Below, piece after piece: positions 16,821-29,378 of a DNA stretch of 29,908 nt. The first letter of the stretch is position 1. Every line of letters starts with the position of its first letter. Both the position numbers and the translations under genes were made by a program. This DNA comes from Escherichia coli (GTDB lineage: Bacteria; Pseudomonadota; Gammaproteobacteria; Enterobacterales; Enterobacteriaceae). The stretch is taken from NCBI RefSeq assembly GCF_003334315.1, contig NZ_QOWR01000056.1, one strand, 5' to 3'. Under the pieces are notes generated by a model. It was not told where the DNA came from, searched no databases, and was given only the letters and a program-made list of their open reading frames with translations.

Positions 16821-17750
16821 TTACGCTGGCATCGCCTCACGCGGGATAATCGCGCCGCGATACTGAATAACGGTACTTGCGGTCAGGTGCCCACGTTTCG
16901 CCGCGTCTTCCGCGCTGCCGCCTGTCAGACGTACCGCCAGATAACCGGCACTGAAAGAGTCGCCAGCTGCGGTGGTATCGATCACTTTTTCTTTCGGCAG
17001 TTTCACCGCCGGAACATCCACTAACCCTTCGCCAGCAATGGACACCAGGCAAGAATCCGCCCCGCGTTTCACCACCACTTCTTTCACGCCCGCGTTATGG
17101 GTGCGCGCAATGACGTCTTCCACCGGCTGTTGACCCCACAGCGCGTCTTCGTCGTCCAGCGTCAGGAAGGCGATATCCGTGCATTCCAGCATTTGTTGGT
17201 ACACCTGCTGTGTCTCTTCTTTGCTGGCCCACAGGCGCGGACGATAGTTATTGTCGAAAATCACTTTTCCGCCGTTGGCGCGGCATTCGCGCAGCAGGGA
17301 AAGCAGCTTTTCGCGGCTGGTCGGGCTTAAGATCGCCAGGCTAATCCCGCTCAGGTAGAGATAATCGAAATTCGCCAGCTCTTCGCAAATCGCCGCAGAC
17401 TGCTCACTCTCCAGCCAGAATTTGGCGGCGGCTTCGTTCCGCCAGTAGTAGAACGTACGCTCGCCGGTGCTGTCGGTTTCAATGTAGTAAAGGCCCGGCA
17501 GACGGTTTTCCATCCGTTGGGTCAGGGAAGTATCAACGTTCTCGCCGTGCCAGGCGTCCAGCATCTGCTGGCTAAAACTGTCCGTTCCCAGCGCCGTTAC
17601 GTAATGAACGGTTAATGCCGCAGGATCGACCTGACGGGCGATATAGACGGAAGTGTTCAGGGTATCGCCGCCGAAACCGCGCTTAACGTCCGCGCCTTTC
17701 TCGGAAAGCTCAATCATGCATTCGCCAATCACGGCAATCTTTTTGGACAT
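16821..17750 (-). CDS. kdgK: 2-dehydro-3-deoxygluconokinase KdgK (PfkB family), 309 aa
   Basis: ATG at 17748..17750 on the minus strand (MSKKIAVIGECMIELSEKG...), within the longer track ORF 16821..18098; length matches K-12 KdgK from recall. Confidence 0.9.
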   Translation of the reverse strand: MSKKIAVIGECMIELSEKGADVKRGFGGDTLNTSVYIARQVDPAALTVHYVTALGTDSFSQQMLDAWHGENVDTSLTQRMENRLPGLYYIETDSTGERTFYYWRNEAAAKFWLESEQSAAICEELANFDYLYLSGISLAILSPTSREKLLSLLRECRANGGKVIFDNNYRPRLWASKEETQQVYQQMLECTDIAFLTLDDEDALWGQQPVEDVIARTHNAGVKEVVVKRGADSCLVSIAGEGLVDVPAVKLPKEKVIDTTAAGDSFSAGYLAVRLTGGSAEDAAKRGHLTASTVIQYRGAIIPREAMPA

Positions 17751-17816
17751 AGTCGTGAACCTGATCTGTAAAAAATTAGCGTTAGTTTGCGCTGTGGTGG
17801 TTTGCTGGTCAACCAT

Positions 17817-17835
17817 ATTAAAACAGTGTTCCATT
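17817..17835. promoter_or_regulatory. Candidate KdgR operator upstream of kdgK
   Basis: attaaaacagtgttccatt matches the remembered KdgR box AATRAAAYRNYRTTTYATT at about 16 of 18 defined positions; 67-85 bp upstream of the kdgK ATG. Confidence 0.4.
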
Positions 17836-17906
17836 ATTTTTTTGAGCCAGAACGTATTCCTGAAAGATTCCGTTGTGGAGTGAGGAAATTTACCCCGGCC
17901 AGGCGG

Positions 17907-17933
17907 TAAAGTTCTGCCCTTACGCGCCGATAA
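17907..17933 (+). promoter_or_regulatory. Sigma28 (FliA) class 3 flagellar promoter for pdeH
   Basis: TAAAGTTC - 11 nt - GCCGATAA, essentially the sigma28 consensus (TAAAGTTT-N11-GCCGATAA), about 50 bp upstream of the pdeH ATG. Confidence 0.7.
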
Positions 17934-17981
17934 TCTTTGTCGAGTCCGGGCAGCATCACTTTTAAACACAGGACATCTTTG

Positions 17982-18749
17982 ATGATAAGGCAGGTTATCC
18001 AGCGAATAAGCAACCCTGAAGCAAGCATCGAGAGCTTGCAGGAACGGCGTTTTTGGTTGCAGTGTGAGCGTGCTTACACCTGGCAGCCGATCTATCAAAC
18101 ATGCGGGCGGTTAATGGCCGTGGAGCTATTAACGGTGGTCACGCATCCCTTGAACCCTTCGCAACGCCTGCCGCCGGATCGCTATTTTACTGAAATCACC
18201 GTCAGCCATCGGATGGAGGTTGTGAAAGAGCAGATTGATTTGCTGGCGCAAAAAGCCGACTTCTTTATAGAGCACGGCCTGCTGGCATCGGTCAATATTG
18301 ATGGCCCTACGCTCATCGCCCTGCGTCAGCAACCAAAAATCCTGCGCCAGATTGAGCGTCTTCCCTGGCTGCGTTTCGAACTGGTGGAGCATATCCGTCT
18401 GCCGAAAGATTCAACCTTTGCCTCGATGTGTGAATTTGGCCCGCTGTGGCTGGATGATTTTGGTACCGGGATGGCAAATTTCTCTGCGCTAAGTGAAGTG
18501 CGTTATGACTACATCAAAATCGCGCGAGAACTGTTTGTGATGCTGCGTCAGTCGCCGGAAGGACGCACACTCTTTTCTCAGCTTTTACATCTAATGAATC
18601 GCTATTGTCGCGGGGTGATTGTCGAGGGCGTAGAAACGCCGGAAGAGTGGCGTGATGTTCAGAACTCGCCCGCATTCGCCGCACAAGGCTGGTTTCTTTC
18701 ACGCCCGGCACCGATAGAAACGCTGAATACGGCGGTTCTGGCGCTATAA
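17982..18749 (+). CDS. pdeH: c-di-GMP phosphodiesterase PdeH (YhjH), EAL-only, 255 aa
   Basis: ATG at 17982 (MIRQVIQRISNPEASIESLQERRFWLQ...) inside track ORF 17937..18749; EAL-position motif ELL and DDFGTG motif visible. Confidence 0.9.
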   Translation: MIRQVIQRISNPEASIESLQERRFWLQCERAYTWQPIYQTCGRLMAVELLTVVTHPLNPSQRLPPDRYFTEITVSHRMEVVKEQIDLLAQKADFFIEHGLLASVNIDGPTLIALRQQPKILRQIERLPWLRFELVEHIRLPKDSTFASMCEFGPLWLDDFGTGMANFSALSEVRYDYIKIARELFVMLRQSPEGRTLFSQLLHLMNRYCRGVIVEGVETPEEWRDVQNSPAFAAQGWFLSRPAPIETLNTAVLAL

Positions 18750-18818
18750 GCTGCCTCATTTTCCGCCTGGCTGGACTATCTTTAGGACTGGCACAGGAAG
18801 AATATGAGGAAGCGAACG

Positions 18819-20879
18819 ATGAGCAAGGCAGGCAAAATAACCGCTGCGATTTCAGGGGCTTTCTTGTTGTTGATTGTCGTGGCGATCATTTTGATTGCAA
18901 CTTTTGACTGGAATCGACTCAAACCGACTATCAACCAGAAAGTCTCTGCGGAGTTGAATCGTCCGTTCGCTATCCGTGGCGATCTGGGCGTGGTGTGGGA
19001 GCGGCAAAAACAAGAAACTGGCTGGCGCAGCTGGGTGCCGTGGCCCCATGTACACGCGGAAGACATCATTCTTGGCAATCCACCGGATATTCCCGAAGTC
19101 ACGATGGTGCATTTGCCACGCGTAGAGGCAACGCTGGCCCCGCTGGCGCTGCTGACCAAAACGGTCTGGCTGCCGTGGATCAAGCTCGAAAAGCCCGACG
19201 CGCGCCTGATTCGCCTCTCTGAAAAGAACAATAACTGGACGTTTAATCTTGCCAACGATGATAACAAAGACGCGAATGCAAAGCCGTCGGCATGGTCGTT
19301 TCGGCTGGATAATATTCTTTTCGATCAAGGGCGGATCGCCATTGATGACAAAGTAAGCAAAGCGGATCTGGAGATTTTTGTTGATCCCTTAGGCAAGCCG
19401 CTGCCGTTCAGCGAAGTTACTGGATCGAAAGGTAAAGCGGATAAAGAAAAGGTGGGCGATTACGTTTTTGGCCTGAAGGCGCAGGGACGATATAACGGTG
19501 AACCGCTCACGGGTACGGGAAAAATAGGCGGTATGCTGGCGCTGCGTGGCGAAGGGACGCCGTTTCCGGTACAGGCTGATTTCCGCTCTGGTAACACCCG
19601 TGTTGCTTTTGATGGCGTCGTGAATGACCCAATGAAGATGGGCGGTGTCGATTTACGGCTTAAATTTTCTGGCGATTCACTGGGTGATCTCTATGAACTG
19701 ACGGGCGTTCTGCTGCCCGATACCCCGCCGTTTGAAACGGATGGTCGGCTGGTAGCGAAAATCGACACTGAAAAATCGTCGGTCTTTGATTATCGCGGTT
19801 TTAATGGGCGAATTGGTGATAGCGATATCCACGGTTCTCTGGTCTACACCACCGGAAAGCCACGACCAAAACTGGAAGGTGATGTCGAGTCGCGGCAATT
19901 GCGGCTGGCGGACCTGGGACCGTTGATTGGCGTTGATTCCGGGAAAGGGGCAGAAAAGTCGAAACGGTCTGAACAGAAGAAGGGCGAAAAAAGCGTTCAG
20001 CCTGCGGGCAAAGTGCTGCCTTATGACCGCTTCGAAACCGATAAATGGGACGTTATGGATGCCGATGTTCGCTTCAAAGGGCGGCGCATTGAGCATGGCA
20101 GTAGCCTGCCGATTAGCGATCTTTCTACTCATATCATCCTCAAAAATGCTGACCTGCGCCTGCAACCGCTGAAATTTGGCATGGCGGGCGGCAGCATTGC
20201 GGCGAATATTCATCTGGAAGGCGATAAAAAGCCGATGCAGGGGCGGGCAGATATTCAGGCTCGTCGACTGAAACTGAAAGAACTGATGCCCGATGTGGAA
20301 CTGATGCAGAAGACGCTGGGGGAAATGAACGGTGACGCGGAACTACGCGGTAGCGGTAACTCGGTGGCGGCACTTTTAGGCAACAGTAACGGCAACCTGA
20401 AACTGTTGATGAATGACGGGCTGGTGAGCCGCAACCTGATGGAGATTGTTGGGCTGAATGTCGGCAACTACATTGTCGGTGCGATATTTGGTGATGATGA
20501 GGTGCGGGTGAACTGCGCGGCGGCGAATCTGAATATTGCCAACGGCGTGGCGCGCCCGCAGATTTTTGCTTTCGATACTGAGAACGCGTTGATTAATGTT
20601 ACCGGCACGGCAAGTTTTGCTTCGGAACAGCTGGATTTGACTATTGATCCGGAGAGTAAAGGAATTCGGATTATCACACTGCGTTCGCCGCTGTATGTGC
20701 GGGGGACGTTTAAAAATCCGCAGGCTGGGGTGAAAGCCGGACCGCTGATTGCCCGTGGTGCTGTTGCTGCGGCACTGGCAACGCTGGTAACACCGGCGGC
20801 GGCGTTACTGGCACTGATCTCACCTTCCGAAGGGGAGGCTAATCAGTGTCGGACGATTTTGTCGCAGATGAAGAAGTGA
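18819..20879 (+). CDS. yhjG: AsmA-family inner-membrane-anchored protein YhjG (about 686 aa)
   Basis: ORF 18804..20879; ATG at 18819 (MSKAGKITAAISGAFLLLIVVAIILIATFDWNRLKP) matches the remembered K-12 start; an in-frame ATG 5 codons upstream (18804) has a better Shine-Dalgarno, so the start is uncertain. Confidence 0.8.
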   Translation: MSKAGKITAAISGAFLLLIVVAIILIATFDWNRLKPTINQKVSAELNRPFAIRGDLGVVWERQKQETGWRSWVPWPHVHAEDIILGNPPDIPEVTMVHLPRVEATLAPLALLTKTVWLPWIKLEKPDARLIRLSEKNNNWTFNLANDDNKDANAKPSAWSFRLDNILFDQGRIAIDDKVSKADLEIFVDPLGKPLPFSEVTGSKGKADKEKVGDYVFGLKAQGRYNGEPLTGTGKIGGMLALRGEGTPFPVQADFRSGNTRVAFDGVVNDPMKMGGVDLRLKFSGDSLGDLYELTGVLLPDTPPFETDGRLVAKIDTEKSSVFDYRGFNGRIGDSDIHGSLVYTTGKPRPKLEGDVESRQLRLADLGPLIGVDSGKGAEKSKRSEQKKGEKSVQPAGKVLPYDRFETDKWDVMDADVRFKGRRIEHGSSLPISDLSTHIILKNADLRLQPLKFGMAGGSIAANIHLEGDKKPMQGRADIQARRLKLKELMPDVELMQKTLGEMNGDAELRGSGNSVAALLGNSNGNLKLLMNDGLVSRNLMEIVGLNVGNYIVGAIFGDDEVRVNCAAANLNIANGVARPQIFAFDTENALINVTGTASFASEQLDLTIDPESKGIRIITLRSPLYVRGTFKNPQAGVKAGPLIARGAVAAALATLVTPAAALLALISPSEGEANQCRTILSQMKK

Positions 20880-22793: not shown

Positions 22794-23807
22794 TTAAGGC
22801 TGCGTTTTCCCCGGCATTCGCGGGTCGTCTTTATATTCGGCGGTGGCAATCCACGCCGCGCAAAACAGCGTCAAACGGGCGAAGAAGTAGAAAAATGCCA
22901 TCAGCCCCAGCACGGAACCAAATGCTGCGCCAGAGGGGGATTTCATCAACGATGGCAGGGTGTAGGTCATCACGATTTTAATCACTTCAAAACCAATAGC
23001 AGCCAGAAATGTTCCGCGAATCAGGGCTTTTTTGCGCGGACGGTGGCGCGGCAACCGCCAGAAGATCCAGAAGAAAAGCAGATAGTTGGCGAAGATGGAA
23101 ATCGCCAGGCCAATCAATCGCCACGTCGGTTTCAGCCACTCAATGCTGTTCAGGTGCAGGGCGCTAATAATCATTTGCTGCGCCGAACCGGCAACCGAGG
23201 TGATCGAAAGCGTCACAATCAGCGCAATCAACAAACCAATCAGCGAAATAAAATCTCGCAGATATTTTACCCAGAACTTCTCCTGATCTTGCGGCGAGCG
23301 TTCCCAGACATCGCGCGACTGGGCACGAATCGCTTCACGCAGGTTACCCATCCAGTTGATGCCGGAATAAAGTGCCACCGCCAGGCCGACAAGCCCTACA
23401 GTCGTACGCTGCTGAACGGCGGTGTTGATGGTGTTTTTCAACGTGGCGGCTAGCGTCGGATCGCTGATGTTTTGCAGAATTTTGTCGAAGATATCCTGTA
23501 GCAACATCGGATGGGAGGCCAGCACAAAGCCCCCTGCGGCAAACGACACCATCAAAATTGGTATCATCGACAAAAATGAGAAATAGGTGATAGCCGCACC
23601 AAACTGGTTACCCAGCCGATCGTTAAAGCGTTCTGTCGCGCGAATCAGGTGCGCAATAACCGGTTGGCGTTGGACTTTTTCGGCAGTGGTGGTGACGGTT
23701 TCCAGCGCCTGGCTAACTTTGCTGCCTTTCTCGCTATTATCCAACGGCTTAATCGGCTCGTGCTCCAGATCCTGGATGGGACGTTTGATCTCGTTTTCCT
23801 GCGTCAT
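22794..23807 (-). CDS. yhjD: Inner membrane protein YhjD (YihY/BrkB family), 337 aa
   Basis: ORF 22794..23807 on the minus strand, translation MTQENEIKRPIQDLEHEPIKPLDNSEKGSK... followed by multiple hydrophobic segments. Confidence 0.9.
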   Translation of the reverse strand: MTQENEIKRPIQDLEHEPIKPLDNSEKGSKVSQALETVTTTAEKVQRQPVIAHLIRATERFNDRLGNQFGAAITYFSFLSMIPILMVSFAAGGFVLASHPMLLQDIFDKILQNISDPTLAATLKNTINTAVQQRTTVGLVGLAVALYSGINWMGNLREAIRAQSRDVWERSPQDQEKFWVKYLRDFISLIGLLIALIVTLSITSVAGSAQQMIISALHLNSIEWLKPTWRLIGLAISIFANYLLFFWIFWRLPRHRPRKKALIRGTFLAAIGFEVIKIVMTYTLPSLMKSPSGAAFGSVLGLMAFFYFFARLTLFCAAWIATAEYKDDPRMPGKTQP

Positions 23808-27980: not shown

Positions 27981-29378
27981 ATGAAAATGGTCTCACGTAT
28001 TACCGCGATCGGCCTGGCTGGCGTCGCGATTTGCTATTTAGGGTTATCTGGTTATGTGTGGTACCACGATAATAAACGCAGTAAACAGGCCGATGTTCAG
28101 GCATCTGCTGTCAGTGAAAATAATAAGGTTTTAGGCTTTCTCCGCGAAAAAGGATGCGACTATTGCCACACGCCTTCGGCAGAATTACCCGCCTATTATT
28201 ATATTCCTGGCGCGAAACAGTTGATGGATTACGACATTAAGCTTGGATATAAATCTTTTAACCTTGAGGCCGTGCGTGCGGCACTGCTGGCTGATAAACC
28301 CGTTTCGCAAAGCGATTTGAATAAGATTGAATGGGTGATGCAGTATGAAACTATGCCACCAACGCGTTATACCGCGCTACACTGGGCGGGTAAGGTGAGT
28401 GATGAAGAGCGGGCGGAAATACTGGCCTGGATTGCAAAACAGCGCGCGGAATATTACGCCAGCAATGATACTGCTCCGGAACATCGCAATGAACCGGTGC
28501 AGCCCATCCCGCAAAAACTGCCTACCGATGCGCAAAAAGTGGCGTTGGGTTTTGCGCTGTATCACGATCCCCGTTTATCGGCTGATAGCACCATTTCATG
28601 CGCTCATTGCCATGCGTTGAATGCGGGGGGCGTCGATGGCAGAAAAACATCGATTGGTGTTGGTGGCGCAGTTGGGCCGATTAACGCGCCGACGGTATTT
28701 AACTCAGTATTTAACGTTGAGCAGTTCTGGGATGGTCGTGCGGCAACATTGCAGGATCAGGCTGGTGGACCGCCGTTGAACCCGATTGAAATGGCGTCGA
28801 AATCCTGGGACGAAATTATTGCTAAGCTGGAAAAAGATCCGCAGCTTAAAACGCAGTTCCTCGAAGTCTATCCGCAAGGTTTCAGTGGCGAAAATATTAC
28901 TGATGCCATTGCTGAATTTGAGAAAACATTAATTACGCCGGATTCCCCATTTGATAAATGGTTGCGCGGAGATGAAAATGCGCTGACGGCGCAACAGAAA
29001 AAAGGCTATCAATTATTTAAAGATAATAAATGTGCAACTTGTCATGGTGGTATTATTCTCGGCGGACGTTCCTTTGAACCGTTGGGGCTGAAAAAAGACT
29101 TTAACTTTGGGGAAATTACGGCGGCGGATATTGGTCGTATGAATGTGACTAAAGAAGAGCGTGATAAATTGCGTCAGAAAGTACCCGGTTTACGTAACGT
29201 TGCTTTAACGGCACCGTACTTCCATCGCGGTGACGTGCCGACGCTGGACGGGGCGGTGAAACTGATGCTGCGCTATCAGGTAGGCAAAGAGCTGCCGCAG
29301 GAGGATGTGGATGATATCGTAGCTTTCCTGCACAGTCTGAACGGGGTGTACACGCCGTATATGCAGGATAAACAATAA
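27981..29378 (+). CDS. yhjA: Tri-haem cytochrome c peroxidase YhjA (Ccp), 465 aa
   Basis: ORF 27981..29378 with GAGGGAAG Shine-Dalgarno; N-terminal membrane anchor; three CxxCH haem motifs (CDYCH, CAHCH, CATCH). Confidence 0.9.
   Translation: MKMVSRITAIGLAGVAICYLGLSGYVWYHDNKRSKQADVQASAVSENNKVLGFLREKGCDYCHTPSAELPAYYYIPGAKQLMDYDIKLGYKSFNLEAVRAALLADKPVSQSDLNKIEWVMQYETMPPTRYTALHWAGKVSDEERAEILAWIAKQRAEYYASNDTAPEHRNEPVQPIPQKLPTDAQKVALGFALYHDPRLSADSTISCAHCHALNAGGVDGRKTSIGVGGAVGPINAPTVFNSVFNVEQFWDGRAATLQDQAGGPPLNPIEMASKSWDEIIAKLEKDPQLKTQFLEVYPQGFSGENITDAIAEFEKTLITPDSPFDKWLRGDENALTAQQKKGYQLFKDNKCATCHGGIILGGRSFEPLGLKKDFNFGEITAADIGRMNVTKEERDKLRQKVPGLRNVALTAPYFHRGDVPTLDGAVKLMLRYQVGKELPQEDVDDIVAFLHSLNGVYTPYMQDKQ

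Follow-up and report, generated by a model that had tools for sequence, protein, structure and literature searches.

A sigma-28 (FliA) promoter of the c-di-GMP phosphodiesterase gene pdeH and its conservation across Enterobacteriaceae

Introduction

Positions 17907-17933 on the forward strand of the window, a stretch of 29,908 nucleotides from Escherichia coli (contig NZ_QOWR01000056.1), are read here, with a probability of about 97%, as the class 3 flagellar promoter from which sigma-28 (FliA) RNA polymerase transcribes pdeH (yhjH). This promoter is already established, as it is identical with the annotated yhjHp/pdeHp, and no novelty is attached to the assignment itself. The motif has the form TAAAGTTC-N11-GCCGATAA and agrees with the consensus at 15 of 16 positions with a single mismatch; it is intergenic and co-oriented with pdeH. 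The preliminary description, made from the sequence alone, had proposed a near-perfect FliA consensus about 50 bp before the pdeH start within a 231-bp divergent region, and its sequence and coordinates were found to be exact: the spacer is 11 nt long, 48 nt separate the -10 octamer from the pdeH ATG (17982), and the region 17751-17981 measures 231 bp. The features of the region are as follows.

16821-17750, minus strand: kdgK, encoding 2-dehydro-3-deoxygluconokinase (NCBIfam NF052444, 528 bits)
17817-17835, no strand assigned: palindromic operator ATTAAAACAGTGTTCCATT of the KdgR type (and likewise of the PlaR type), lying 67-85 bp before the kdgK ATG
17907-17914, plus strand: sigma-28 (FliA) -35 element TAAAGTTC (consensus TAAAGTTT), included in the FliA ChIP-seq motif published for yhjH
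17915-17925, plus strand: 11-nt spacer tgcccttacgc, of fixed length and variable sequence except for its first T (17915)
17926-17933, plus strand: sigma-28 -10 element GCCGATAA, a perfect consensus kept in 79 of 79 loci
17940, plus strand: inferred transcription start (T), 7 nt past the last A of the -10 octamer, as in RegulonDB yhjHp
17940-17981, plus strand: predicted pdeH leader of 42 nt, with the Shine-Dalgarno sequence AGGA at 17970-17973
17982-18749, plus strand: pdeH (yhjH), encoding an EAL-domain c-di-GMP phosphodiesterase of 255 aa (NCBIfam NF008617 and RefSeq annotation)

The identity of the downstream gene is secured by the match of its product, with the N-terminus MIRQVIQRISNPEAS, to the NCBIfam equivalog NF008617 at 461.9 bits (cut-off 190). 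In a K-12-derived record, the gene order runs bcsQABZC, hmsP/pdeK, dctA, yhjJ, kdgK (minus strand), pdeH (plus strand) and yhjG, and continues to gadA. The window has the K-12 sequence around kdgK and pdeH; relative to the K-12-derived record ER1709, it carries single-nucleotide differences from about position 1765 (bcs genes) onwards, together with an indel that shifts the register, so that the DNA stems from a different E. coli strain. Within the species the region is nearly ubiquitous: of the 5426 complete E. coli genomes, 5423 matched a 1-kb query around the site with an identity of at least 95%, and 5422 contained the 111-bp promoter region, all but two of them at the same identity level.

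Chance expectation and weight-matrix score

The motif stands out clearly from what the window would yield by chance. Allowing at most one mismatch to TAAAGTTT-N11-GCCGATAA, a single match was present in the window and none in 100 dinucleotide-preserving shuffles; under uniform base frequencies, the probability of 49/4^16 per position corresponds to about 7e-4 matches expected per window. With up to three mismatches tolerated, the pdeH site was still the sole match, against 0.17 expected.

A sigma-28 position-weight-matrix scan, which had been suggested as a check in the preliminary description, led to the same site. The matrix was built in leave-one-out fashion from the 51 other FliA ChIP-seq sites of Fitzgerald et al. 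2014 (Table 2, PMC4183435; 52 sites minus yhjH). The pdeH site scored 23.6 bits over a background of -20 +/- 8.5 bits, and the second-best site on either strand of the window reached 14.65 bits. Under leave-one-out scoring, the site ranked fourth among the 52 E. coli FliA sites, after tar, flgMN and motAB.

Weak FliA-like matches elsewhere in the window were located at 28574-28601 on the minus strand (the 14.65-bit site, inside ccp and antisense to it), at 23563-23590 on the minus strand (14.5 bits, around yhjD) and at 20042-20069 on the plus strand (12.1 bits, inside yhjG). No matrix hit other than the pdeH site exceeds 14.7 bits or coincides with any of the 52 published ChIP-seq sites, and these weak matches were set aside as probable background.

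FliA occupancy and FliA dependence

The 28-mer TAAAGTTCTGCCCTTACGCGCCGATAAT (17907-17934) is identical to the FliA ChIP-seq motif printed for yhjH in Table 2 of Fitzgerald et al. 2014 (PMC4183435), where the site has a fold-above-threshold (FAT) score of 67. Occupancy was also certified by ChIP-qPCR in the supplement of the same study, with a value of 10.1 for FliA-FLAG versus 0.31 for the untagged control (p = 0.004). With genome coordinates transferred via the MG1655 record (pdeH at 3678420-3679187, minus strand), the ChIP-seq peak centre at 3677244 falls on window position 17948, at about +9 and about 28 nt downstream of the motif centre; the same offset was described by the authors for FliA promoters bound by the holoenzyme (PMC4183435). 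It is the only FliA ChIP-seq site within the genome interval spanned by the window.

Expression data point in the same direction. Normalised RNA-seq expression of yhjH was 511 in motile MG1655 and 2 in the fliA deletion, a significant difference that leaves a residue of about 0.4% without fliA (PMC4183435), and qRT-PCR gave 0.027 of the wild-type level in the deletion and 2.7 with pBAD-fliA (PMC4183435 supplement). Independent array data of Zhao et al. 2007 (PMC1935009) showed a change of -9.6-fold for yhjH in a fliA deletion and of +1.9-fold on FliA overexpression/induction; yhjH is listed there as a previously reported sigma-F-dependent gene, and the in vitro transcription set of that study consists of new candidate genes, with yhjH not among them. 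Of the 11 sites that FlhDC ChIP-seq uncovered genome-wide, none is reported at yhjH, and the gene is absent from the named FlhDC targets (PMC4183435). As expression is also close to nil without FliA, the FliA promoter appears to be the sole significant one under those conditions. The placement of pdeH in the late flagellar regulon, and the FliA dependence put forward in the preliminary description as its test, are thus both borne out by published ChIP and fliA-deletion data.

Conservation across Enterobacteriaceae

A PdeH protein scan of species-representative genomes returned 80 loci from 17 named Enterobacteriaceae genera, with protein identities of 67-92%. Upstream sequence was present in 79 of the 80, and the alignment comprised 75 distinct intergenic sequences, with the window as the reference for identity. 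In all 79 loci the best sigma-28 matrix match upstream of pdeH scored 19.0-23.6 bits and read TAAAGTT[C/A]-N11-GCCGATAA, that is, neither TAAAGTT nor GCCGATAA varies and every spacer measures 11 nt. The eighth base of the -35 element is C in 71 loci and A in 8, the consensus T occurring in none, while the first spacer base (T at 17915) is likewise invariant, which extends the conserved unit to TAAAGTTMT.

Compared with the window, the -35 element has a mean identity of 0.99 and the -10 element one of 1.00, and the spacer reaches 0.44; the 56 bp upstream of the -35 element (17851-17906) are the least conserved part of the region, with a mean identity of 0.40. Purifying selection has therefore acted on both boxes and on the spacer length rather than on the spacer sequence, which is the footprint of a sigma-factor site and not of general conservation. 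Counted up to the codon that corresponds to the E. coli pdeH start, the promoter lies 47-57 nt away in 78 of the 79 loci, and wherever a locus extends far enough upstream, kdgK is divergent from pdeH.

Several individual loci deserve mention. In Citrobacter amalonaticus S646 (L007:2795-2981), an insertion of about 187 bp, flanked by an imperfect 14-nt direct repeat (GGCGGCTACGCTCT / GGTGGCTACGCGCT), separates the conserved GAGTCCGGGC block of the pdeH leader from the Shine-Dalgarno sequence and lengthens the distance from promoter to ATG from 48 to 235 nt; it is missing from two other Citrobacter loci of the alignment (L006 and L014) and gave no family match in Rfam. A record titled Chryseobacterium sp. 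18061 (L061) contains a typical Enterobacteriaceae kdgK/pdeH locus, whose FliA motif is the same as that of Citrobacter sp. 18056 (L055) from the same study, and this assembly is probably mislabelled or contaminated. In Enterobacter sp. EA-1 (L074:2058-2360), merely a fragment of kdgK (residues 134-234) stands beside pdeH, which suggests that kdgK is disrupted there; the sigma-28 site before pdeH is intact and scores 19.6 bits. In the loci outside Escherichia, Citrobacter and Salmonella (L023-L081), the codon at the position of the E. coli pdeH ATG is AAG or AAT, and the protein alignment starts only at residue 2-5; consequently, these orthologues must start a few codons away, with the promoter-start distance still at about 50 nt.

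Transcription start and leader

The RegulonDB entry yhjHp (ECK120009896; start 3677252 in NC_000913.2) comes with an 81-nt sequence identical to window positions 17880-17960, which sets the start at 17940, or about 3679229 in NC_000913.3. The evidence codes of this entry, as given in the supplement of PMC4183435, are only HIPP, AIPP and non-traceable author statement (NTAS); as these are inferential, the start was deduced from the promoter position, not mapped. In the accessible parts of the genome-wide start-site data from Cappable-seq, Rend-seq, Romero et al. 2014 and Kim et al. 2012, no entry was seen under yhjH, under b3525 or at the expected coordinate, and laboratory MG1655 is often poorly motile; this absence does not conflict with the sigma-28 reading. 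Sigma-28 targets and pdeH are outside the coverage of the ROSE in vitro transcription paper. For the dissection of the two boxes, replacement of GCCGATAA by GCCGCTAA and of TAAAGTTC by TCCAGTTC is proposed.

The ACAGGA block of the pdeH leader is conserved in the intergenic alignment. A structured or riboswitch-like leader was considered and rejected, as its predicted folding does not surpass that of shuffled sequence (z = +0.94); Rfam returned no RNA family across the entire window. A terminator scan of 17500-18900 produced a lone terminator-like hairpin inside pdeH, which is within chance expectation.

The KdgR-type operator on the kdgK side

The other half of the divergent region contains the palindromic operator at 17817-17835, which ends 71 bp before the -35 element of the pdeH promoter. 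The 17-bp consensus of KdgR is AATRAAAYRNYRTTTYA, reportedly after Nasser et al. 1994. This consensus matches the window only at the box, on the minus strand at 17819-17835 with one mismatch (0.05 expected); the plus-strand reading at 17817-17833 has two mismatches to it. The KdgR motif length of 17 bp is documented (PMC4908373). All 75 distinct intergenic sequences share the core TAAAAC-N3-GTT, and the CC next to it is at least 90% conserved. The stretch AAAC-N3-GTTC within the box also forms the core of the PlaR box ATnTGAAACnnnGTTCAnTT that Shimada et al. 2019 published (PMC6958661), and in that study the kdgK region was a gSELEX target of PlaR (YiaJ) and kdgK mRNA was raised in a kdgR mutant. 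KdgR is referred to as a known repressor of kdgT and kdgK by Sastry et al. 2019 (PMC6892915). The element at 17817-17835 is therefore best described as a KdgR/PlaR-type operator of kdgK. The KdgR-like operator noted for kdgK in the preliminary description is hence present, conserved and consistent with published KdgR/PlaR control, and the picture of two unrelated regulons sharing a compact space is a fair one; no sign of interaction between them was found.

A candidate sigma-70 promoter of kdgK was located on the minus strand, consisting of TTGACC (17812-17807) and CAAACT (17789-17784) at a distance of 17 nt, both of which are conserved. In this arrangement the -35 element would be immediately preceded by the KdgR/PlaR box, which would occupy about -42 to -58 and lie off the core promoter. 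An alternative -10 element of kdgK, TAATAT (17820-17815, minus strand), would place the box over the spacer instead. The A/T-rich block at 17836-17850 has a conservation of 0.89.

Alternative explanations

A good FliA motif is by itself no proof of a promoter, as 30 of the 52 FliA sites in E. coli are intragenic and most of these have no detectable transcript (PMC4183435), so that the pdeH motif might be a chance or non-productive FliA-binding sequence of this kind. Its position does not fit such a sequence, being intergenic, properly oriented and 48 nt from the start codon; over 97% of pdeH expression disappears when fliA is deleted and returns with complementation (PMC4183435); and across 17 genera the two boxes stay invariant as the spacer drifts, in contrast to the intragenic FliA sites, which are reported to be non-conserved (bioRxiv 10.1101/2020.09.09.289983). 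This explanation is scarcely credible. It is also very improbable that pdeH is transcribed mainly from a separate sigma-70 promoter in the 231-bp region, with the FliA effect being indirect, for instance via FliZ or another class 3 product. A consensus scan of 17500-18900 gave no candidate for such a promoter, the segment 17851-17906 before the -35 element is the least conserved of the region (identity 0.40), and FliA is physically at the site, as evidenced by the ChIP-seq peak about 28 nt downstream of the motif centre. Furthermore, with an expression of 2 in the fliA deletion versus 511, no substantial FliA-independent promoter can have been active under those conditions.

A further possibility concerns functional coupling of the two halves of the region, either by KdgR/PlaR at 17817-17835 modulating pdeH or by FliA-driven transcription affecting kdgK. 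If this were true, signals derived from KDG or galacturonate would relieve KdgR/PlaR and tune pdeH, and breakdown products of pectin and the plant cell wall would thereby adjust c-di-GMP and swimming. In its favour, both modules share the 231-bp divergent region at every locus with enough upstream sequence across the 17 genera, and the kdgK region is among the PlaR gSELEX targets (PMC6958661). Simple synteny, however, explains the conserved adjacency equally well, and the 71 bp between the box and the -35 element are unconstrained DNA (0.40 identity). Moreover, pdeH expression follows FliA almost completely (PMC4183435), and neither yhjH nor pdeH is among the affected genes named in the PlaR/KdgR paper (PMC6958661). 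Coupling is accordingly regarded as very unlikely, and the KdgR/PlaR box most likely belongs to the divergent kdgK promoter and acts independently of the sigma-28 promoter of pdeH.

Proposed mechanism

FliA is made under the control of FlhDC and is freed from FlgM only once the hook-basal body is complete, so that its activity follows class 2 expression and the export of FlgM (PMC4183435; bioRxiv 10.1101/2020.09.09.289983), and yhjH is co-regulated with the flagellar genes (PMC3715855; bioRxiv 10.1101/2020.09.09.289983). In the sigma-28 reading, the polymerase carrying FliA recognises TAAAGTTC and GCCGATAA, 11 nt apart, and initiates at about 17940, the exact nucleotide being deduced. The product is a monocistronic-looking mRNA with a predicted unstructured 42-nt leader and AGGA as the ribosome-binding site, and PdeH appears alongside flagellin, motor and chemotaxis proteins. 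Lowered c-di-GMP stops YcgR from braking the motor and, through the YegE/YhjH module, holds back csgD activation (PMC3715855). By keeping c-di-GMP low, PdeH thus keeps the YcgR brake off the motor and csgD and curli off. Upon shutdown of the flagellar genes, pdeH expression drops and c-di-GMP rises.

Related systems and significance

The sigma-28 promoter of yhjH is reportedly the subject of papers by Ko & Park in 2000 and Park et al. in 2001. The E. coli promoter yhjHp/pdeHp of RegulonDB (ECK120009896) and the promoter in the window are the same object, and nothing is different at the locus. The class 3 promoters of tar-tap-cheRBYZ, tsr, flgMN, motAB-cheAW and fliC have the same TAAAGTTT-N11-GCCGATAA layout as that of pdeH, with no mismatch in tar and one each in flgMN, tsr and yhjH, and the expression of canonical class 3 genes collapses in the fliA deletion as it does for yhjH (PMC4183435). 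Different from these genes, pdeH encodes a c-di-GMP phosphodiesterase instead of a structural, motor or chemotaxis protein, and none of the 79 species has the consensus T as the eighth base of its -35 element, which is always C or A.

The other gene of the FliA regulon for c-di-GMP control of motility is ycgR, which has a FAT score of 67 like yhjH and falls in expression from 104 to 0 in the fliA deletion (PMC4183435). Its motif (TTAAGTTT ... ACCGATAA) is weaker than that of pdeH, and its product is the c-di-GMP receptor, acting as effector and motor brake, whereas pdeH encodes the degrading enzyme. According to a study on Pseudomonas putida (PMC5300878), BifA is likewise a c-di-GMP phosphodiesterase under the flagellar sigma factor; it is an unrelated protein from another genus, and its control by FliA is described there as partial.

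Recognising the pdeH promoter from raw sequence identified a true sigma-28 promoter and brought no new biology. What is added here is that conservation of the boxes and of the 11-nt spacing is absolute in at least 17 genera of Enterobacteriaceae, that the eighth base of the -35 element is off-consensus throughout, and that the public start-site annotation is still inferential. The promoter itself ties c-di-GMP degradation to the completion of the flagellum and is the basis of the published switch between motility and biofilm formation in E. coli.
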